Origin: Arenicellales bacterium
Lineage (GTDB): Bacteria; Pseudomonadota; Gammaproteobacteria; Arenicellales; JAJDZL01
Length of the DNA: 64,000 bases
Direction of reading: 5' to 3'
Assembly (NCBI GenBank): GCA_965220725.1
Contig: OZ244840.1
Coordinates: 1,268,180-1,332,179, forward strand
Below the pieces are notes generated by a model. The model saw nothing but the letters and a program-made list of their open reading frames with translations. It ran no database searches and was not told the DNA's origin. A program made the position numbers and the translations under genes. Shown in pieces: positions 17 through 20,809 of this stretch; position 1 is the first letter of the stretch, and the number at the start of each line of letters is the position of its first letter.

Positions 17-418
17 TCAATTTCTCAACTGTTCAAAAAGTTCAAGCAACCCGTTTCGGAGTTCAGCATTGGACGCCTTCTCACACACACCATGAGCGAT
101 CACCACCATGTCACGATTCTGCAATCTGTGCTGACTAGTCCTGAAACACTCCCGGATCTGGCGCTTGATTCGGTTTCGACGGACAGCCTTAACGGACACA
201 CGGCGAGAAACCACGATTCCGAGACGCGCAGCCGATTGGTTGCGCCGGCTGTGAGTCAATATCCGGAAGTACCGGTTCGAACAACGCCTGTTTTGGTTGA
301 ATACCGTCTGAAATTCCCTGCGCCGCTGCAATCTGTGGCTTTTTGGAAAACGATGTCCAACCAGCGTCGAGACTGTCTCATGCGCTGAGCTTTGCGCGGC
401 CTTTCGCCCGTCGTGCAT
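17..418 (-). CDS. rnpA: Ribonuclease P protein component
   Basis: 133-aa ORF directly downstream of rpmH. Has the basic RnpA signature ([35 protein letters not shown]). The annotated ATG overlaps the rpmH 3' end by 41 nt, so the true start is uncertain. Confidence 0.85.
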
Positions 419-646: not shown

Positions 647-2426
647 CCCTAAATCCTCGATAGAGCCATCAGAAATAAGAAAAGCCCCGCCAGTATAATG
701 GGTTTGAACAAATGACAGGTTCACCCGTTGGGTGAAACCGTAAACTCACTATACAGGAGAAGCAGGGCTGATGAAGATTTTACCATACGAACTCAAACCC
801 ACCGACGAAAAACTGACTTCCCGCGCAGGATTGTCCTGTGTTCTGGTCGTATTGGAGCGGCTGGGACTGGAAAAGATGGCGGATGCGCTGTTTGCCAAGC
901 CGCGCAGCAACCGCGGCTACCGAGCCGGTGAGTTTGTGAAAACGTTCCTGCTGACGTTTTTTGAGGGCGGGCGCAGTCTTGAGGATGTTCAGTTGGTTCA
1001 CAACGAGCGCACATTGCTGGGTGAGCATGGCATCAAGCGGATTCCCGGTCCGGATGCGATGGCGCGGTGGCTTCGTCGGTTTGGCAGTGGCAGTGGCGGT
1101 GGGCTGGTAGCGGTTGGCGAGCTCAACCGTGTAGTGCTGGGCTGGGGGCTGCAACGGCGTCGCTGGGTGACGCTGGACATTGATGCAACTGCATTCAAGG
1201 CGAAAAAGAGTACAGCCAACCGCAACTACTGCGGCGATCGCGGCTACACGCCGATGGTGGGCACGGTGAACCGGAGCGGTCAGGTGGTGTTGACGGAGTT
1301 TCGAGAGGGCAAGTGTCCGCCGAGCAAAGACAATATAGGATTCTTGAAGCGATGCATTAAGAGGTTGCCGCATTGGGTTCGCGTGAAGTGGTTGCGCATT
1401 GATGCGGCCGGCTATCAAAAGTCGATCATCGAGTATTGCGAGCAGAATGAGATCAGCTACGTGATCCGGGCGAGGATGTGCGGGGAGATCCGGGAGCTCA
1501 TCAAGGACACCCGCGAGAGTGACTGGAAGCCGTTGCGTCAGCGCGATGGCAGCGAGTCGCCGTCCGAGAGTGTGTTTCGCTGTCTGCATGTGATGGATGA
1601 CATGGATCAGGCGTTCACGCTGGTCATCCAGCGCCAGCGCCGCAACAATACTGAACGCGGTGTCGAAGACGGTCCCCGGCAGCCGGAGTTTCCGTTTCTG
1701 TGCATTGTGGATGATGAGCGCATTGAAAGCGACAAGTATGTGTTCCGGGCGATTGCCACCAACATGGACGAGGACATGGATGACAGTGAGATCATTCACT
1801 TTTACAACCAGCGCGGTGAGCACAGTGAGAACCGCATCAAGGAGTTGTGCAGTGATTTTGCGGCGCGGCGTGTGCCGTGTGACGACATTGACGCCAATGC
1901 GCTGTACTTCGCGCTCAGTGCGCTGGCGTTCAATGTGTTGGCGCTGATGCGCCAGGTGCTGCCGGTGAGGTTTGAGTGTTCGCGGGCGCCAACGGTACGC
2001 AAGCAGGTATTCGCCATGGCGGGGCGTTTTACCCGACATGCCCGCAAGGTGACGTTGAGTGTGAGCCGAGAGCACTACGAAGTGCTGACCGAGGTGTTGT
2101 CCAGCGTTGATCAGCTGTTGCGCGACATTGAGCGGATACTGCCCGGGCCCGAACCGCCGCCCACTGCCTGACGCGCTCCCAACTCATCGGTTCTGAATCC
2201 GCCGGCTGTCCTGCCGGGCGCCGGCCTATGGGCCGGATTGCGGATGAATCCATGCTGCAACGCTTGCAACTACCCATCGCATCGCAAATCCTGCTCCGAC
2301 ACTCTCCTTGATCAGTTCCCTTTTCCGAATTGGGGACAAGCTCGCCCGTTTGGGGCATAATGAGGCAGAATATGCTCAAATACAATGCGAAATTGCGTTC
2401 AACTCGGTTCTAACGAGGATTTAGGG
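647..2426 (+). mobile_element. IS1380-family insertion sequence, apparently intact (1780 bp)
   Basis: Terminal inverted repeats ccctaaatcctcgatagagcc (647-667) and ggttctaacgaggatttaggg (2406-2426) match at 19 of 21 positions and start with CC. Flanked by a 5-bp direct repeat AAGAT. Carries a single 466-aa DDE transposase ORF. Confidence 0.85.
771..2171 (+). CDS. IS1380-family DDE transposase
   Basis: The N-terminal LTSRAGL motif and the C-terminal FYNQRGEHSENRIKELCSDFA parallel ISEcp1-type transposases (LTSNAGL, YYEKRGNAENYIKEAK). The size of 466 aa is typical. Confidence 0.88.
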   Translation: MKILPYELKPTDEKLTSRAGLSCVLVVLERLGLEKMADALFAKPRSNRGYRAGEFVKTFLLTFFEGGRSLEDVQLVHNERTLLGEHGIKRIPGPDAMARWLRRFGSGSGGGLVAVGELNRVVLGWGLQRRRWVTLDIDATAFKAKKSTANRNYCGDRGYTPMVGTVNRSGQVVLTEFREGKCPPSKDNIGFLKRCIKRLPHWVRVKWLRIDAAGYQKSIIEYCEQNEISYVIRARMCGEIRELIKDTRESDWKPLRQRDGSESPSESVFRCLHVMDDMDQAFTLVIQRQRRNNTERGVEDGPRQPEFPFLCIVDDERIESDKYVFRAIATNMDEDMDDSEIIHFYNQRGEHSENRIKELCSDFAARRVPCDDIDANALYFALSALAFNVLALMRQVLPVRFECSRAPTVRKQVFAMAGRFTRHARKVTLSVSREHYEVLTEVLSSVDQLLRDIERILPGPEPPPTA

Positions 2427-2431
2427 AAGAT
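2427..2431. repeat. Target-site duplication (AAGAT), right copy
   Basis: See the left copy at 642-646. Confidence 0.75.
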
Positions 2432-2694
2432 ATTTTGTTAGACAATTTCAACAAACTTTCCAACTCTGACGGAGCTTGAAGATCCATCACTGCACTTAGG
2501 AGCAGGAGTCAGGACTAAACTAAATCGTACCCGCCAATAACTGGTTTTCTTACAATGAAAGCGAAAGGCATCACGCTGCGACGCTGTGAGTATCCAAGCG
2601 ATGCCGAATCGTTCCTAGTGAGAGTTAACGGACTATAACAGGTGATGTTTGCTAGCCGCTAATGGTCATCCATGGCTCTAGAAGTTGCGAACGT

Positions 2695-2725
2695 GAAGCC
2701 GGTGCGCGCATTGCGCACCGGCTTC
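2695..2725 (-). terminator. Strong hairpin 14 nt downstream of the autotransporter stop codon
   Basis: gaagccggtgcgc-gcatt-gcgcaccggcttc forms a perfect 13-bp GC-rich stem with a 5-nt loop. There is no clear U-tract, so intrinsic terminator activity is not certain. Confidence 0.45.
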
Positions 2726-2738
2726 AGTTGTCCAGCTA

Positions 2739-5700
2739 TCAGAATCGAATCCCGCCTTGTAGTCGGATCGAATACTCAGCATCGCCCGCCGAACCGGCAC
2801 GTTCCCTGGCCAGATTCAGCTCCAGATTGGAACCATAGCGCAGCCGGGTACCAACACGATACGCCTGGTCGCCATCTGCCATTGACATCTCGCTGAACGG
2901 CATCAAGAGCGCTTGGCCGTCAGCGAGACTGACACCGTAACTCAGATCTGCTTCCATCCGCGGTTGGTAATCGTCGTCACCGACAACGTCACCGCTGCGT
3001 CCGTTGTCCCAGATGCCGTCAACCCCGCGTACCGGTGCACCATACGACGGTCGCACGCTGAAAGACAGTCCGCGATCGCCGGCTTGCGGCGACATGTGTA
3101 TACTGCCCTGAATGCCCCACTCACCGGAATTGTTGCGCTTGAGCAACCCGTAAGATGACACAGACAACGTCATGCGCTTTGACGGCGTCAGGTAGTCCAA
3201 TCCGGCACCGACTTCCAGACGGGTGCCCGTGATACCATCACCACTGTCGTGCACCACACCAACCTCGGCCGATGGTTCAAATACACCGCCATCGGACGAT
3301 TGATGGCGCTGACTCGCCTCAACCACCAGACGGGTACGGTGGACACTGACATCCGTAGCCGAAATCAGATCCACAGCATCCACACTCATCTCGGTCAATG
3401 CAAAATCACCTGTCAGGTTCAGCGTGGTCTTGTCGTCGCGCCACACCTCGGAGCTGACACCCACACCCACGGTGTTCAAAGACATATCACTGGAATTGGC
3501 ATAGTTGGACTGATTCAGATCAAAATCACCCGAGCCGATTCCGATAAACGACCAAAATACGTAGTCTGATGACCGCAAACCGAAATACGGATTGACCGTA
3601 GTCGCCTTGAACTTCTGCGTACCGGTGACGCCATCGGAAGTGCGGTAGTCGGCTTTACTGGAAAAGCGGGACAGGGTGACGCCACCAATCACGCCCTCTT
3701 CCAGTGGGGCATCCAGTCCGAAACTGTAACCAGTCACTTCACCATCGTAGGACAGGGAAGCATCGTCACCGTCAAACCGGTTGTGTGAGGTATGACCCCA
3801 AACCGAAAATGCATCGCGGCCCAAACCGCCTTCGGTGTACGCATTCACCAGTGACAGGAACTGATCGCTACGCACAAACTCATCGGCGTCCATGCGCACT
3901 GGCTCCTGCCAGATGTCTGAAGACAAAGTCCCGACATCCCTCACACTAAGACTGGAGTTGCCGCCAACCGTCGGCGCGCGGTAATTCTGCACCCTGGTGC
4001 GGATACCTGTCATGGTTTCACCACCGATGACGCGGGCGACCTCGGACATATTTTTATCCATGCTATCTTTAATCGCGTTGGTGGCCGATGCCGGTGGTTC
4101 CGTCACTGTAATTGTGAACATCAGCGAGGCCGCATCGGAAACTCCCGTGTTGGCGTCAGAATCCACTACCGCGTAGGTGTAAGGCGTCGCAGGTTGTGTC
4201 ACCGACTTATCAACAGTACCTGTAATTCGCCGCGTCGAGGAAGTGAACTTCAGCCCCGCCGGCAAAGTCCCTACGATCGAATAAGTCAGCACACCGTTGC
4301 CGTCGGTCGCCGCCGGCAGCAACTCATCGACCGACATTCCGCTCCAATAGGTCAGTGGGGCGATCTGTTGAGTGCCGAAACTTGGCGCAGAATCCGTTTC
4401 CACCGCTATCGTGAACGTCAGCGTGCCCGTATCACCGTCTGCATCCGTCGCCGTGTAGGTGTAGGTCGTTGCAGCCTGAGTACTCGTCGGAGTACCGATG
4501 ATCTCATTCGGCGTCGCCCTATCATTGAAACTCAAACCACCCGGTAGCCGACTCATCGTATAAGTCAGCGTTCCGTTACCACCGGTCGCCACTGGTAGCT
4601 CCAACGGCGTGATCGTAAATCCTTGGACGTAGACTTGCGGGGGAATTGTCGCTGAACCGAAATTCGGACTATCGTCTTGCTGCACTGTAATATCGAAAGT
4701 CAGTGTAGCCGCATCGGAATCGGTCCGATTGCCATCCGAGTCCTCCACCTTGTAGGTATACGTTGTCGCAGCCTGGTGCCCGGTTGGTGTGCCTCTGATC
4801 AGACGCGAGGCTTCAACGAATTCCAGTCCAGCCGGAAGACTGGGACTTATCGAGTATTCCAGATTGCCGTTGCCTCCGCTCGCCACCGGTAGTGTGAACT
4901 GTCTGATCTGATCGTTTTGCAAATAGTCTTTGGCGGTTATCGTGGCACCAGATCCAAATGCTGGCGCAGTATCCGCAACCACCGCGATATTGATCGTCAG
5001 AGTAGCCGCATCGGAATTCGCCGTGTTGGTGTCACCGTCAACCACCCTGTAGGTGTAACTCACCGTCCTACTTTCATCAGTCGGTGTGCCTGTGATCTGA
5101 CGCGTCGTTGAATTAAATGCCAAACCAGGCGGCAGTGAATCCATTGAGTAGGTCATGGGCGTATCGCCGAACGCCTCTGGCAACTGCAACGGCGTGATCG
5201 CAATGTCCTTGACGTAAGTCTGAGTCGCAACCGTCGCACCACGCAGATCCGGCGGATTGTCCAGGGCCGCCGTCACGACGGCGGACGCAGTACCATTGCG
5301 GGGGTTATTGCCTGGACGGTTCACCGCCCGAATCCTGAACTTGAAGTTGGAACCTGTGTTCAAACCCGTCACTGTGTACGAGGTGTCCGAGCCATTTTTA
5401 CCCGTCATGTCTTGCCATTCGCCGTAACCTTGCCCATCCTTATCCATCTGGTATTGGTACTTGGTAATTGGTATCGATGAGTGAGTGCATGAGTTGTCCC
5501 ACGTTAGTGTGACCTCCTTGGTACTGTCGTTCGCGGTAGCACTCAAATTCCGGGGTTGCGCCGGATTACTGTTGAACGGACTGTCTGTGGAAAATATAAC
5601 TCGCTTTAGATTACTATCGGGTCCCACATTCAATCTGAAGCGGAAATTGTTACTGCCCAGCACGCTCGACAAGGTCCCGTTAAAAGTGGCTTTCCCTCCG

Positions 5701-6122
5701 TTGAAATTTATAATGTTGCCGGTCTTGCTCCTTCCTGCCATGCTAACATCGCTATACGGACCAAAACCCCTTTTCTTGAATCTAAGGTAAAAGTTCGATG
5801 TATAACTCGATGGGCTGGCTTCCTTTGCGAAGATGTTCCGTGAATCACCGGGAACATAATGGACATTTTGCCTACCATTACCCCTATTATTCGCCTCTGT
5901 ACCGGAAATTTGATAGGTTTCTGAAGAACTAGGCCCATGCCTAAGTTTCAGACTACTAGCATCGGGGTTAGTAAAGCCCCCGCTTTGCAGTACCGAAGTA
6001 TCAAAGCACCCAAATGCATCAATCGTACTATTTGTACCGTCGTCATGGTAGTAGAAGTAAAGTTCGTCAGTAGCGATCGCACTGCCCCCCCCCCACAATG
6101 AAGAACAAACACCCAATGACAA
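2739..6122 (-). CDS. Autotransporter-type outer-membrane protein. Passenger has an FN3 domain and four Ig-like repeats; the 5' end is frame-disrupted at a G10 tract.
   Basis: The C-terminal ~300 aa have beta-barrel character and end ...YSIRLQGGIRF (terminal aromatic residue). The FN3-like segment includes TLTWDN, KYQYQ, FKFRIRAVN. Four ~95-aa repeats carry LP(P/A/G)GL.F....I.GTPT. The track start is a TTG with no signal peptide; the real SD, ATG and signal peptide lie at 6156 in another frame (see the 6067-6156 and 6085-6094 features). Confidence 0.75.
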   Translation of the reverse strand: MSLGVCSSLWGGGSAIATDELYFYYHDDGTNSTIDAFGCFDTSVLQSGGFTNPDASSLKLRHGPSSSETYQISGTEANNRGNGRQNVHYVPGDSRNIFAKEASPSSYTSNFYLRFKKRGFGPYSDVSMAGRSKTGNIINFNGGKATFNGTLSSVLGSNNFRFRLNVGPDSNLKRVIFSTDSPFNSNPAQPRNLSATANDSTKEVTLTWDNSCTHSSIPITKYQYQMDKDGQGYGEWQDMTGKNGSDTSYTVTGLNTGSNFKFRIRAVNRPGNNPRNGTASAVVTAALDNPPDLRGATVATQTYVKDIAITPLQLPEAFGDTPMTYSMDSLPPGLAFNSTTRQITGTPTDESRTVSYTYRVVDGDTNTANSDAATLTINIAVVADTAPAFGSGATITAKDYLQNDQIRQFTLPVASGGNGNLEYSISPSLPAGLEFVEASRLIRGTPTGHQAATTYTYKVEDSDGNRTDSDAATLTFDITVQQDDSPNFGSATIPPQVYVQGFTITPLELPVATGGNGTLTYTMSRLPGGLSFNDRATPNEIIGTPTSTQAATTYTYTATDADGDTGTLTFTIAVETDSAPSFGTQQIAPLTYWSGMSVDELLPAATDGNGVLTYSIVGTLPAGLKFTSSTRRITGTVDKSVTQPATPYTYAVVDSDANTGVSDAASLMFTITVTEPPASATNAIKDSMDKNMSEVARVIGGETMTGIRTRVQNYRAPTVGGNSSLSVRDVGTLSSDIWQEPVRMDADEFVRSDQFLSLVNAYTEGGLGRDAFSVWGHTSHNRFDGDDASLSYDGEVTGYSFGLDAPLEEGVIGGVTLSRFSSKADYRTSDGVTGTQKFKATTVNPYFGLRSSDYVFWSFIGIGSGDFDLNQSNYANSSDMSLNTVGVGVSSEVWRDDKTTLNLTGDFALTEMSVDAVDLISATDVSVHRTRLVVEASQRHQSSDGGVFEPSAEVGVVHDSGDGITGTRLEVGAGLDYLTPSKRMTLSVSSYGLLKRNNSGEWGIQGSIHMSPQAGDRGLSFSVRPSYGAPVRGVDGIWDNGRSGDVVGDDDYQPRMEADLSYGVSLADGQALLMPFSEMSMADGDQAYRVGTRLRYGSNLELNLARERAGSAGDAEYSIRLQGGIRF
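4098..5255 (-). repeat. Four tandem ~95-codon Ig-like (He_PIG/cadherin-like) coding repeats in the autotransporter passenger
   Basis: Recurring blocks: LPPGLAFNSTTRQITGTPT, LPAGLEFVEASRLIRGTPT, LPGGLSFNDRATPNEIIGTPT, LPAGLKFTSSTRRITGTV. Each is followed by Y.Y...D.D and by ATLTF.I.V. Confidence 0.7.
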
Positions 6123-6156
6123 GCGACAGTTTCTGCGCAGGCAAATTAATTTTCAT
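6067..6156 (-). other. Out-of-frame leader ORF encoding the autotransporter signal peptide (MKINLPAQKLSLVIGCLFFIVGGGQCDRY*)
   Basis: GAGGA lies 7 nt upstream of the ATG at 6156. The peptide has a basic n-region and a hydrophobic h-region. The frame ends 18 nt after the G10 tract. A tract of G9 or G12 would fuse it to the 1127-codon frame. Confidence 0.7.
6085..6094 (-). repeat. Homopolymeric G10 (C10 on the + strand) tract inside the autotransporter 5' end
   Basis: Counted directly: actgCCCCCC CCCCacaatg. Confidence 0.95.
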
Positions 6157-7593
6157 AGGCTTATCCTCGAAAAAGTGGCGCTTCCTTGTGCCGAATATAA
6201 ATCAACGCAACTCATATCAACTATGAACTGCAATCTCAAGAACAAAACGTTCCAGATTGAAGCGAATACACAAACCAGTCATCACATCAGTATCGCTGAC
6301 TTGACACTGGTTCTCACTTCACAAATGATCAAATATCAATCAATTTCATCTTATTGTGTTGCGAATAATACACAAAACACAAGTCATTTGAATCAACTTT
6401 TTTCATTTTTATGTCAATTCACCAACTGTTACGAACCGGTAAACAGGTAGCGCAAATCAATACACTCGCTTGATACTCAATTTTCGAGTGACTTGTGCAA
6501 ACACCCAAAGTGGTCGTCACGCAGGCATTCGCCGGTGCTTTATCATTCAACAAGCTTGACCTCGAGCTTAAAAGCTCTGAAATTCGGTTCTCGCGATGCA
6601 GTGTGATAATTTCGCGGCACAGTTGTCACCTGGGGAGATTCGGAAGTGGCAATAAAATCTCGACACTGAATCTCTTCCATTCATCCTGGAGCTTCATCTT
6701 AAACATGCTACCGCCCTTAATCCAACTCGAAGGCATCGGATGCAGTAACGGAACGATGACGTGATGTTGAATGGTTCTGACATTGAATCTGTGATTCGGC
6801 TGTAAAACGTGCCACGAGAAGAGTGTTGAGAGATTGGACACCGCGAAACACCTTTGAGTTCTAATACGCTTTGGTCCAAACGCTCTAGTTCGGACTGGAC
6901 TAATCCACCGGCTTATGAGTTACAGCAACCACAGCGTGAGTCAGTACACGTCCGGTGGTGAAATCGGTTACCGGGAAGACTACCGCTGAGTAGGTTGGCG
7001 AACTGTTGCATTGCAACCGGAAGTGATTCCGAGTGAAGCCTCGACCTATCGACCCCGCCCACATCAACTTTCATCCAAAAACCTCACACACCGAGCGACG
7101 CGTGTTGCCGATCGACTTCACTACACCAGTCACCGTCCAGCATCTGTTTATCGCATTGAAACTTCAAGCAGAATCAAGCCATGCCAGACAACTGGCTGTT
7201 GTCATGAAGTGTGTCAACTGGCTACCGAAAACTGTCTCGTTCATGGCCGATTCGTCATTTCTTCATCATAACATTATTCGCATTATCAATTATTTAAGGT
7301 TCATATAGAAGTGCTGATACATTTCCAGCGTTTTGTTTCATACTCATTTTTTACCCTTGGATCAGGCGATTCTAGAGAAAAGCGAGAACCTCGATTCTGC
7401 CAACGGCATATAAATCAAACCCTTACAAAGACCTCAAAAATTCGTCAAAAAAAATCGGCATGAATCCAAAATTTGTGATTTACAATCCGTGAAGAAGTGT
7501 CGAGCAGTCAACCGATTCAAACGCAAGATTTGCCTACTGCCGAATCACTTCCATTGAAGCCAATCCAAAGAAATAACAAATGGTCTGAAAATC

Positions 7594-8964
7594 ATGTCAT
7601 CTACTTTATGGAAACAATGCCTGTCGCGTCTGGAAACCAGCCTCAATGAAGAGGATGTCATCGCCTGGCTGCGGTCACTGAGCGCCAGAGAGAACGGTAC
7701 AAATCTGGTGCTGAATGCACCCAACCGATACGCCAAGGAAAAGATCGAATCAGATTATCTCCCGATGATCGCCGAGAATGTGGAATTCCTGACCGGACGC
7801 GAATATGATGTCAGCGTCTGTCTTGCAGGAGGAAGGCGCAATTCACCAAAAGCCACTCCAGATGCAACAAACAGAAATTCCAATTCCAACAATCGCCTCG
7901 GGTCTTTTTCAATCGACCGCCAACCGTACGGGTTCGAAGTACTCAACCGAAACTACACATTCGACGAGCATGTGGTTGGTGAGTCCAATCAACTCGCGCG
8001 TCACATGGCACAGCATGTAGCCGGAGTACCCGGAGAACGCGAACATAATCCGCTGTTCATTTATGGAGATGTCGGAAACGGCAAAACCCACTTGATGCAG
8101 GCCTCAGGTCATCAGATGCGCGCGAACTTTCCCGGTAAGAAGATCGGTTATGTTCGCGCCAACAATTTCGTTCGACACCTGGTCACGTTGATGAAACGCA
8201 AGGACAGTGAAAACATCGAACAGTTCAAGACCTTCTACCAGGAACTCGATGCATTGTTGATCGACGACATCCATCATTTTGCCGGTGCCGATGTCTCACA
8301 GCAGGAGTTTCTGCACACCTTCAACACCCTGTTGGAGGGAAACAAGCAGATCATCATTACCAGTGACCGGTTCTTTAAGGAAATCAACGGGGTTGAGGAT
8401 CGCCTGAAATCCAGGCTCGGCCAGGGTTTCACGATAAGGGTCAAGCCACCGGAACTGGAGACGCGGATCGCCATCCTGGAATCCAAGGCTGAGAAGCGCG
8501 GCGTTGAGCTGGATCCCGAAGTGTCAAGGTTTGTAGCGGAAAAGATCAACTCCAGCGTCCGCGAACTCGAAGGTGCACTGAATCAGCTGATCGCCAGCTA
8601 CAATTTCACCAACGAACCGATTTCGATTGCCAGTGCCAAGAAGATTCTCTACGATACCCTTGAGTTCCATTCCCGACCGATCGATATACCAACAATCCTA
8701 AAGGAGGTTGCCCGATTCTACCGCATCCGTGTGGATGACATTCTGTCCAGCAGCAGGAGGGCCAACATTGCACGTGCCCGTCATGTCTCAATGGTTCTGG
8801 CCAGGCAACTGACTTCGCAAAGCCTGCCCCGGATTGCTGAGGCCATTGGCGGAAAAAACCACTCAACAGTCATACACGCATGCAAGAGAGTCAACGCATT
8901 GATTGAGGAAGACAGTGAGTTCAGATCGGAATTCAATACACTCAAGGACATGCTGTCTCATTGA
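7594..8964 (+). CDS. dnaA: Chromosomal replication initiator protein DnaA
   Basis: N-terminal LWKQCLSRLE, Walker A GDVGNGKTHL, C-terminal DNA-binding region (IAEAIGGKNHSTVIHACKRV). Confidence 0.97.
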   Translation: MSSTLWKQCLSRLETSLNEEDVIAWLRSLSARENGTNLVLNAPNRYAKEKIESDYLPMIAENVEFLTGREYDVSVCLAGGRRNSPKATPDATNRNSNSNNRLGSFSIDRQPYGFEVLNRNYTFDEHVVGESNQLARHMAQHVAGVPGEREHNPLFIYGDVGNGKTHLMQASGHQMRANFPGKKIGYVRANNFVRHLVTLMKRKDSENIEQFKTFYQELDALLIDDIHHFAGADVSQQEFLHTFNTLLEGNKQIIITSDRFFKEINGVEDRLKSRLGQGFTIRVKPPELETRIAILESKAEKRGVELDPEVSRFVAEKINSSVRELEGALNQLIASYNFTNEPISIASAKKILYDTLEFHSRPIDIPTILKEVARFYRIRVDDILSSSRRANIARARHVSMVLARQLTSQSLPRIAEAIGGKNHSTVIHACKRVNALIEEDSEFRSEFNTLKDMLSH

Positions 8965-19255: not shown

Positions 19256-19654
19256 TTAGTGTTGAAGGCTTAGAACTGCGTCCCGGTTAAGATCAGTTAC
19301 CTCGGCAACCTTCTCCGGGTCCATGCCATCTCGGAGCAGATTCGTTGCGACTTTTACCCGTCCTTCTTGCCGGCCTCTTTTCCTACCTTCGTGCCGGTTT
19401 TCCTCCCAGGCTTCTTCCCTGCCTTCTTTCACACCTTCCTGGCGAAGGAATTCTACGGCTGACTGAAGTATCTGTCTTTCCTCCGAATTTCTTGCTTGCG
19501 CCAATATATCTTCCATGGGGATATCCTCATTACAATCGCTGAAAAGACCAATCATCAACCCGAATGCCCAAGCAAGATCCTCTGGTAGGATAGGTCCTCT
19601 CCGGTCCAGCACCTCCTGCACCAAAGAGAGTCTATCATCGCGCACTTTCGACAT
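19256..19654 (-). CDS. Stand-alone Rpn C-terminal-domain ORF (5'-truncated rpn paralogue, RpnS-like)
   Basis: 132 codons. By eye about 75 percent identical in aa and about 85 percent in nt to residues 197-312 of the adjacent full-length Rpn protein, plus an extra E/G/R-rich insert. Its ATG aligns with internal Met197 of the full-length gene. Homology continues upstream to ~19725 but is closed by stop codons. Confidence 0.6.
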   Translation of the reverse strand: MSKVRDDRLSLVQEVLDRRGPILPEDLAWAFGLMIGLFSDCNEDIPMEDILAQARNSEERQILQSAVEFLRQEGVKEGREEAWEENRHEGRKRGRQEGRVKVATNLLRDGMDPEKVAEVTDLNRDAVLSLQH

Positions 19655-19870
19655 CAAGTGGATTACCGCATTAATGTTGGTGTTCCGTACACGGCCCAGC
19701 CGATCGATCTAACTGACATCTAACGGCAGGTGCCGAAAGTTCACCGACAACTGTGCCAGTGCCCCGTAGCATTTGTTATGCAGAGTTAAGGATAGGTCAG
19801 TGAACTCAGTTCGACTGTCACTGTCCACACACCAAGTTTGGCTGAATCTGCTTCCAAAAGCTTCATCTGT

Positions 19871-20809
19871 TTAGCGTTGAAGTTTTTGAACTGCGTCCCG
19901 GCTAAGGTCAGTTACTTCGGCAACCTTTTCCGGATCCATGCCATCTCGGAGCAGATTCGCTGCGACTTCTTCCCGGACTTCTACCCGACCTTCTTCCCGA
20001 CCTTCCTGGCGAAGGAATTCTGCGGCTGATTGAAGCATCTGTCTTTCCTCCGAATTTCTTGCTTGCGCCAATATATCTCCCTTGGAGATATCCTCATTAT
20101 AATCGCTGAAATAACCAATCATCAACCCGTACGCCCACTCATGATCCTCTGGTGGGATAGTTCCTTTCCGGTCCAGCAACTCCTGCACCAAGGAGAGCCT
20201 TGCCTCGCGCACGTTCGACATCAAGTGGATTACCGTTTCAATGTTGGTGTCTCGTGCAAGGCCCAGCTGATCGATCTCGTTGACATCAATCAGCATGCAC
20301 TTGAAGTTCACCGAATATTCGGTCAGTATCGCCCGAAACTCGTCCGCGAGGTTCTTGTACAGGTCGATGAATTCGACCGGTGTAGTCTTGCGCGAGTTGG
20401 TGGAATCGGCGCGCGGGTCGTACTGAAGCACCACGATCGGAAGAATCGGTGACTTAAAATCGTTCTGCACGTGAATGAGGAACTGATTCCGGGCCACTTG
20501 CCGCAAAAGATTGGAGTCACGGTAGCTTTTGTGCTCGAACAGTAAAATCAGATGTATTACCTCGCCGCTGCCTTTGAGTTCAACGGAAAACACCAGGTCG
20601 GCGAATCTCTCAGGCAAGCCCGGGATTGCGATCTCGGTCGGCTGCAGGCTCAGCGTCGACCAGTCGATGAAGTCGGATAGATTGTCAGGAATACCAATAC
20701 GAATCAGGGTGATGACGTATTCAAGTCTTCGAAAGATGTCCTTGAAGAAACGGTCATGCAGACGTTCGGGGCGTTTGCCGGGTTCAATGGATGTATCAGA
20801 TTCTGCCAT
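19871..20809 (-). CDS. Rpn/YhgA-like recombination-promoting nuclease (PD-(D/E)xK, Transposase_31 family)
   Basis: HDRFFKDIF, FADLVFSVELKG, ILLFEHKS (D...E.K catalytic pattern). The C-terminal variable helical domain ends LLRDGMDPEKVAEVTDLSRDAV. Confidence 0.8.
   Translation of the reverse strand: MAESDTSIEPGKRPERLHDRFFKDIFRRLEYVITLIRIGIPDNLSDFIDWSTLSLQPTEIAIPGLPERFADLVFSVELKGSGEVIHLILLFEHKSYRDSNLLRQVARNQFLIHVQNDFKSPILPIVVLQYDPRADSTNSRKTTPVEFIDLYKNLADEFRAILTEYSVNFKCMLIDVNEIDQLGLARDTNIETVIHLMSNVREARLSLVQELLDRKGTIPPEDHEWAYGLMIGYFSDYNEDISKGDILAQARNSEERQMLQSAAEFLRQEGREEGRVEVREEVAANLLRDGMDPEKVAEVTDLSRDAVQKLQR

Follow-up and report, generated by a model that had tools for sequence, protein, structure and literature searches.

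A G10 homopolymer uncouples the start codon and signal peptide from an Ig-like autotransporter in an Arenicellales bacterium: a candidate phase-variable adhesin in the OFF state

Results

A poly-G tract separates a signal peptide from the body of an autotransporter gene

A 64-kb stretch of the genome of an Arenicellales bacterium (contig OZ244840.1, positions 1,268,180 to 1,332,179), referred to here as the window, carries on its minus strand a predicted autotransporter gene that is divided between two reading frames by a run of ten G residues. A Shine–Dalgarno (SD) sequence, a start codon and a signal peptide lie in one frame, and a long passenger and translocator lie in another. The reading that we favour, giving it about an even chance of being right, is that the G run is a real, heritable and hypermutable slipped-strand contingency tract within the signal-peptide codons of an autotransporter adhesin, and that the gene is now OFF. 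The elements concerned, all on the minus strand, are as follows:

6164–6168 (minus): Shine–Dalgarno sequence GAGGA, read directly from the DNA and followed by the 7-nt spacer TAAGCCT before the ATG
6154–6156 (minus): start codon ATG, the true start of the family, aligned with the paralogue starts MKLNLL../MQFNLL../MTLNLL..
6067–6156 (minus): 29-codon signal-peptide frame with n-region MK..K and h-region LSLVIGCLFFIV, closed by a TGA after the tract
6085–6094 (minus): G10 homopolymer (C10 on the plus strand), the point of frameshift; in frame if G9 or G12
2739–6122 (minus): 1127-codon open reading frame (ORF) for passenger and translocator, without a signal peptide of its own (protein P0001/P0121)

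When the minus strand was read again, the coordinates given in the initial annotation for the SD, spacer, ATG, stop codon, G10 tract and ORF all proved correct. The context around the SD and ATG is TTTTTCGAGGATAAGCCTATGAAAATTAAT, and the frame that opens at 6156 translates to MKINLPAQKLSLVIGCLFFIVGGGQCDRY, crossing the G10 run and ending at the stop codon at 6069–6067. The long ORF (6122–2739, 1127 aa), which was called from a TTG, uses the +1 frame, and ..SSLWGGGSAIATDE.. is its translation over the tract. Removing one G to give G9 creates a 1138-aa product with the N-terminus MKINLPAQKLSLVIGCLFFIVGGGSAIATDE, and either G9 or G12 would join the signal-peptide frame to the long ORF. An uninterrupted repeat is therefore placed between the start codon and the gene body, where a change in its length shifts the frame, as at known contingency loci. 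The Sec signal peptide that a type Va autotransporter carries on the same polypeptide is absent at G10 and appears only after repair to G9 or G12; its assignment here is based on recognizable n-, h- and c-regions, an AIA motif and homology. We considered the in-frame TTG codons at 6122, 6116 and 6098 as alternative starts and rejected them, as they lack an SD and give an N-terminus without a charged n-region. A lipoprotein signal was likewise rejected: although LVIGC fits a lipobox, the hydrophobic stretch runs past the Cys, and paralogue 2 has LVVVC, so that the box is not conserved.

Chance does not account for the tract in this genome, where it is an outlier in both run length and codon use. 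Of the G/C runs in the window, 31 have a length of 5 and one has a length of 6; the only run of length 10 is the tract itself. GGG is the least used Gly codon in the window (12%), and GGGGGG encodes none of the 63 Gly-Gly pairs in the 28 other ORFs. Over the roughly 98 kb made up by the window and two contigs of a sister strain (L002 and L003), every G/C run of at least 8 is located at the homologous tract site.

Tract length differs between close strains

Two contigs carry the same gene. One of them (L001, a 4135-bp contig from sample ERZ25067264) corresponds to window positions 2173–6307 with no mismatches over 4135 bp and has the same G10; it ends inside the insertion sequence (IS) that lies downstream of the gene, at window position 2173. 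The other (L002, contig_3 of ERZ25072236) belongs to the sister strain; in the flanks of the gene it shares 98% identity with the window, at a proportion of synonymous differences (pS) of 0.022 in dnaA and an intergenic divergence of 3.2%. In the L002 orthologue the tract reads TGC followed by G11, against TGT followed by G10 in the window, and so is one base longer, out of frame, and also in need of G9 or G12. This copy is further interrupted by a 1.55-kb IS that begins 25 nt after the G11 (L002 4477–6033, equivalent to window 6053–6060); the element encodes a 459-aa DUF772/DDE_Tnp_1_6 transposase and has perfect 10-bp inverted repeats (TCGACCCTGA) and an 8-bp target duplication (CTACTTAT). 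The gene caller began the L002 protein (P0002) inside the end of this IS.

Tract length therefore varies among close strains and gene copies, with G10 in the window and L001, G11 in L002 and G9 in one paralogue of the sister strain (paralogue 3 of L003). Comparison of relatives had been proposed in the initial annotation, which held that its claim would fail if orthologues lacked the tract and began at another in-frame ATG. What the comparison returned was G10 versus G11 between two close strains and an in-frame G9 in one paralogue, and the L002 orthologue has not only the G11 but also the same SD and ATG. A family-alignment scan of genome contigs, two scans of JGI metagenomes and an exact-DnaA look-up yielded no further strains.

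Paralogues retain the start region and share the G-rich site

The other strong matches (57–58% identity) are paralogues, not orthologues, of which the sister strain has three in a tandem array (L003) and the source genome four (P0006, P0007, P0122 and P0125, known from protein sequence). The L003 paralogues retain GAGG, the 7-nt spacer and the ATG, and their signal peptides, such as MKLNLLTRWLSLIIGCLLVFVWGGASSNERELYFYFH, are in frame; the same GAGG, spacer and ATG are conserved in the L002 orthologue. The in-frame signal peptides of P0005, P0006 and P0007 are homologous to the 29-codon frame of the window, and the distance from GC to ELYFY is 14 residues in both the paralogue and the G9-repaired window protein, so that the two are collinear. 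Because the same SD and ATG lead into an in-frame signal peptide in the paralogues, the repaired frame is the ancestral one. Both the proposal that the ATG at 6156 is the real start and the proposal that G9 repair yields a signal peptide are borne out by these comparisons: three intact paralogues have kept both start region and signal peptide, and the repaired protein matches them in alignment and length.

The tract sites of the L003 paralogues read TGGGGAGGGGC, TGGGGGGAGGC and TGGGGGGGGGC, the last being G9, in frame, at L003 8128–8136; across the three, the versions G9, G4AG4 and G6AG2 occur. P0122 of the source genome, which corresponds to the G9 copy, reads VWEGASS, and its tract must accordingly be interrupted by a Gly-to-Glu change. 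P0125 was called from MSGGGASSNE.., right at the G-rich site, and matches TTT GTC TGG GGG GGG GCA with one extra G, read from the TTG; it is probably a second copy that is OFF at the same site in the source genome, with a G10 tract out of frame. The family of about five paralogues in this organism shares the G-rich site, with some tracts uninterrupted and others interrupted by A and so stabilised. Given this mix, the family may act as a partly switchable surface repertoire.

Two distant homologues (P0017 and P0024, 31–32% identity) that lack a signal peptide in the database might have pointed to a wider phenomenon. This was rejected as a gene-call artefact: in the corresponding DNA (L010 and L011) the coding frame extends further upstream, where it encodes a long in-frame signal peptide, and there is no homopolymer. 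The tract is therefore specific to the family described here. In these Arenicellales-type metagenome-assembled genomes (MAGs), the He_PIG autotransporter database proteins start about 190 codons too late (L010 2400–3000 and L011 2400–3000), and the upstream open frame comprises a long N-terminal extension and a signal peptide (..LLASILALSAICIFPISAEA).

The encoded protein is predicted to be a type Va autotransporter with an Ig-like passenger

The long ORF encodes the following predicted segments, all on the minus strand:

5298–5558 (minus): fn3, fibronectin type III domain (Pfam PF00041, E 4e-12; residues 200–286 of the repaired protein)
4086–5258 (minus): four He_PIG (Ig-like) repeats (Pfam PF05345, four stretches, E 1e-30)
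3987–4091 (minus): long alpha-helix of 35 residues, ORF residues 678–712 (AlphaFold2 secondary structure), a candidate linker before the barrel
2748–3806 (minus): C-terminal beta-barrel translocator ending in ..GGIRF (Foldseek against the Protein Data Bank (PDB); PF03797, 27.6 bits)

A hidden Markov model search of the C-terminus against the Autotransporter family (PF03797), suggested in the initial annotation, gave a match of 27.6 bits, barely above the cut-off of 26. Searches of NCBIfam and of PDB sequences with the protein returned no matches. The structural model, built with AlphaFold from a 24-sequence alignment, has a mean predicted local distance difference test score (pLDDT) of 68, with the passenger repeats and barrel mostly at 70–90 and the N-terminal 150 residues poorly modelled. 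It consists of tandem beta-sandwiches, the helix at residues 678–712, which may be the pore-spanning linker, and a C-terminal barrel at ORF residues 773–1125. When this barrel was compared with known structures using Foldseek, it superposed on BrkA (3qq2) with a target TM-score (TMt) of 0.78–0.80 and a root-mean-square deviation of about 4 Å over some 254 columns, on EspP (2qom; 0.73–0.76), on Hbp (3aeh; 0.69), on AIDA-I (4mee; 0.64) and on NalP (1uyn; 0.61–0.65). Full-length EstA (3kvn) matched at a TMt of only 0.32 because most of its chain lies outside the barrel. The barrel agrees in these comparisons with the 12-stranded translocators of type Va autotransporters.

The passenger begins with an N-terminal domain of no assigned fold, followed by the fn3 domain and the four He_PIG repeats, and the protein ends in the aromatic C-terminus ..LQGGIRF. 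Foldseek matches to SraP, cadherins and contactins agree with the model in making the passenger Ig-like and not beta-helical. Taken together, the barrel superposition and the ..GGIRF end lead us to conclude that this is a true type Va autotransporter whose passenger is Ig-like; the protein is a candidate adhesin. Pfam, the model and Foldseek all uphold the initial description of an autotransporter with FN3 and four Ig-like repeats. The further remark that such a passenger is atypical for type Va is qualified by the metagenomic matches, in dozens of which PF05345 occurs together with PF03797.

The barrel shows purifying selection between strains and the passenger is a mosaic

Between the window and L002, the linker and barrel (442 codons) have a pS of 0.019 and a ratio of non-synonymous to synonymous divergence (pN/pS) of 0.16, with 6 synonymous and 3 non-synonymous substitutions (P = 0.009 versus neutrality). 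For reference, dnaA has a pS of 0.022 and a pN/pS of 0.04. Since the pS of the barrel equals that of dnaA while its pN/pS is 0.16, the gene has been selected over most of the period since the two strains diverged, and yet it is out of frame in both strains today. The low-divergence blocks of the gene, when combined, give a pS of 0.03 and a pN/pS of 0.30 (P = 0.002), and the ORF downstream of the tract is intact over its 1127 codons.

The high-divergence passenger blocks have a pS of 0.42 and a pN/pS of 0.44. On the minus strand these blocks lie at window 5253–6122 and 4064–4655, where pS reaches about 0.4–0.8, with 0.01–0.06 in the rest of the gene and its flanks. This contrast points to recombination having replaced segments of the passenger, one of the boundaries being near the signal peptide, and the passenger is accordingly a recombination mosaic of the kind seen in variable surface antigens.

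Upstream region and genomic neighbourhood

One further conserved element precedes the start codon:

6177–6193 (minus): conserved motif CGGCAC-N-GGA-N-GCGC, about 20–40 nt before the ATG, present in the window, L002 and the three L003 paralogues

In its fuller form, CGGCAC(A/G)N(G/A)GGA(A/C/T)GCGC, this motif is kept in all five gene copies, and its positions in L003 are about 1090–1110, 4640–4660 and 8040–8060. It resembles a sigma-54 -24/-12 element (GGCAC..GC), with the spacing off by one. A promoter scan of the region gave only a weak sigma-70-like match at 6392–6365, and such matches were fewer than expected by chance. Between the autotransporter start and dnaA the window has 1.4 kb without a convincing ORF (6175–7593), which is 3.2% diverged from the sister strain. 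We looked for a DnaA-box cluster in this 1.4-kb spacer and found none, so that in this genome the interval between rpmH and dnaA seems unlike a classical oriC.

The autotransporter gene lies between dnaA-dnaN-gyrB (7594 onward, plus strand) and rnpA (17–418, minus strand). The GyrB encoded there shares 73–74% identity with that of MAGs labelled Arenicellales bacterium (Gammaproteobacteria). A 1.78-kb IS at 647–2426, with a 466-aa DDE_Tnp_1_4 transposase ORF at 771–2171 (plus strand), lies 312 bp past the stop codon of the autotransporter gene; the sister strain (L002) lacks it. Further along, a YhgA-like (Transposase_31) gene of 312 aa at 19871–20809 (minus strand) has its C-terminal third repeated in a 133-aa ORF at 19256–19657 (minus strand); the two share 67% identity with a 16-residue insertion, making the shorter a truncated duplicate. 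The window has no long ORF over 17.8–19.3 kb. Rfam and tRNA scans of the window were empty.

Discussion

If the G run is a contingency tract, slipped-strand mispairing at replication would alter the number of Gs. A length of G9 or G12 would put the conserved SD, ATG and Sec signal peptide in one frame with the FN3/Ig-like passenger and barrel, leading to export and display (ON). At G10 or G11 translation from the ATG would end after 29 codons, leaving the 1127-codon body without a start signal or signal peptide (OFF), and the sequenced genome would carry one of these OFF lengths. The switch would be expected to be reversible, with ON cells present in the population. The anatomy is exactly that of known systems, and the tract, which is ancestral to the family, stands out in the genome as exceptional.

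Several observations weigh against a switch. All three records of this gene are OFF (G10, G10 and G11) and no in-frame allele was found, so that ON and OFF lengths of the same gene do not occur together among the three, the ON length G9 being known from a paralogue only. The source assembly and L001 may not be independent of each other, and the state of P0125 is deduced only from its protein N-terminus. The IS in the G11 orthologue means that the gene is dispensable, and its loss tolerated, in at least one strain. There are also other signs of decay in the genome, namely the IS 312 bp downstream and the truncated YhgA-like duplicate, and the selection test on the barrel involves only 9 substitutions. 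The proposal in the initial annotation of a phase-variable adhesin caught in the OFF state therefore stands in part: the G10/G11 difference and the G9 of the paralogue speak for it, while the exclusively OFF lengths of this gene and the IS-broken G11 copy speak against it.

Much of this could also be told as the history of a plain pseudogene, recently lost in a host-restricted, IS-rich lineage, in which the tract was hit first as the most mutable site and G10 and G11 reflect neutral drift. Both strains are out of frame, L002 has in addition an IS that lies 25 nt beyond the tract and is flanked by an 8-bp target duplication, another IS lies just downstream in the window, truncated gene fragments are found elsewhere in it, and no ON allele of the gene was found. 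There is precedent as well, since capC and capD of Campylobacter represent lineage-specific autotransporter decay and not switching (PMC7168839), and pertactin has been lost through IS481 insertion or a G-tract indel (PMC3966384). What makes us regard simple loss as rather unlikely is that, apart from the tract and the L002 IS, the 1127 codons carry no further lesion in either strain, and that the barrel has a pN/pS of 0.16 at a dnaA-like pS, so that the gene would have had to be inactivated only very recently, and separately in each strain. Homopolymers are moreover unstable, and a G10 run yields ON revertants in any large population. As G10 would revert at high frequency in any case, a dead gene and an OFF gene differ only in whether ON cells are ever selected.

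An error in assembly or consensus at a long homopolymer, with a true length of G9 and an intact gene, is improbable. Long-read consensus is least reliable at homopolymer runs of at least ten, related records have long-read-style contig names (contig_N; ctgN_cov_x), and the frameshift falls exactly in the only long homopolymer of the window. Nevertheless, a separate contig (L001, ERZ25067264) also has G10 within 4135 bp free of mismatches, the sister strain was called as G11 beside a real single-nucleotide difference (TGT to TGC), the equally difficult G9 of paralogue 3 was called in frame, and no long ORF is visibly broken at the other A7–A8 and T7 runs of the window, although this was not checked gene by gene. 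It is very doubtful that G10 is fixed and that RNA-polymerase slippage, or a +1 ribosomal slip on rare GGG codons, rescues a leaky, constitutive low expression. A G run permits perfect re-pairing after a slip and GGG is rare here, and rescue by homopolymer slippage is documented in endosymbionts for poly(A) tracts; but slippage is well documented for A/T runs and much less so for G/C runs, the sequence has no sign of a programmed event, such as a stimulatory structure or an A-site stop codon, and the G11 of the sister strain would need a different shift.

Returning to the contingency tract, we tentatively suggest, as a possibility and less than a probability, that the roughly five Ig-like autotransporters form a combinatorial repertoire in the manner of Opa or Pmp, with copies independently switched by poly-G and some locked ON by G-to-A changes, which would be the first for such a symbiont. 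Arenicellales occur mainly in papers on sponges and other marine invertebrates, and this organism is probably host-associated, likely with a marine invertebrate. To our knowledge, simple-repeat phase variation is documented almost entirely in animal pathogens and commensals, and a narrow literature search returned no paper tying Arenicellales or sponge-type symbionts to repeat-mediated phase variation. If the switch is real, stochastic ON/OFF switching of adhesins would extend to uncultured marine host-associated bacteria, and the tract would offer a PCR-testable handle on symbiont–host or symbiont–phage interaction. For annotation, a "signal-less autotransporter" of this kind should be labelled as a frameshifted or phase-variable gene and not as a TTG-started protein, and homopolymer calls in long-read MAGs call for read-level checks.

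The initial annotation knew of no account of such switching for this kind of organism or at this locus. The mechanism is already textbook for autotransporters (nalP, capD, pmp, bapC), and the new elements are the organism and the FN3/He_PIG passenger family. One paper proposes that homopolymeric tracts at gene 5' ends serve as a general prokaryotic device (PMC2831843). The nalP gene of Neisseria meningitidis has a genic C(9-13) tract and is known to be phase variable (PMC5953494). Like the protein described here, NalP (AspA) and MspA (AusI) of N. meningitidis are type Va autotransporters switched by a C/G homopolymer in the 5' coding region, and the NalP barrel (1uyn) superposes on our model at a TMt of 0.61–0.65. 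They differ in having subtilisin-like protease passengers in place of FN3/Ig-like domains, and their switching has been proven by experiment and in carriage isolates of a human pathogen, whereas only OFF lengths are seen here, in an uncultured member of the Arenicellales. Campylobacter CapD is encoded by an autotransporter gene with a genic homopolymer that decays in some lineages (PMC7168839), and bapC and prn of Bordetella pertussis are autotransporter genes with a genic homopolymer that are lost in some lineages (PMC3966384). CapD, BapC and pertactin share with the window and L002 a mix of tract indels and IS insertion or decay; they differ in passenger type, and to explain several of these genes the authors prefer decay or vaccine-driven loss to adaptive switching.

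In the pmp genes of Chlamydia, poly-G tracts of strain-variable length frameshift individual copies (PMC3932018). The pmpG family is thus also one of paralogous autotransporters in a host-restricted bacterium, some members of which have poly-G tracts, but Pmp passengers are beta-helical with GGAI/FxxN motifs and, the barrel fold apart, the Pmp proteins are unrelated in sequence to this family. In Neisseria Opa and Helicobacter Hop/SabA, a repeat lies in the signal-peptide-coding region of a multi-copy surface-protein family whose copies switch independently. These repeats are CTCTT pentamers or CT dinucleotides and not homopolymers, and the proteins are small beta-barrels and not autotransporters; what they have in common with the genes described here is the placement of the repeat in the signal-peptide codons of a multi-copy family.

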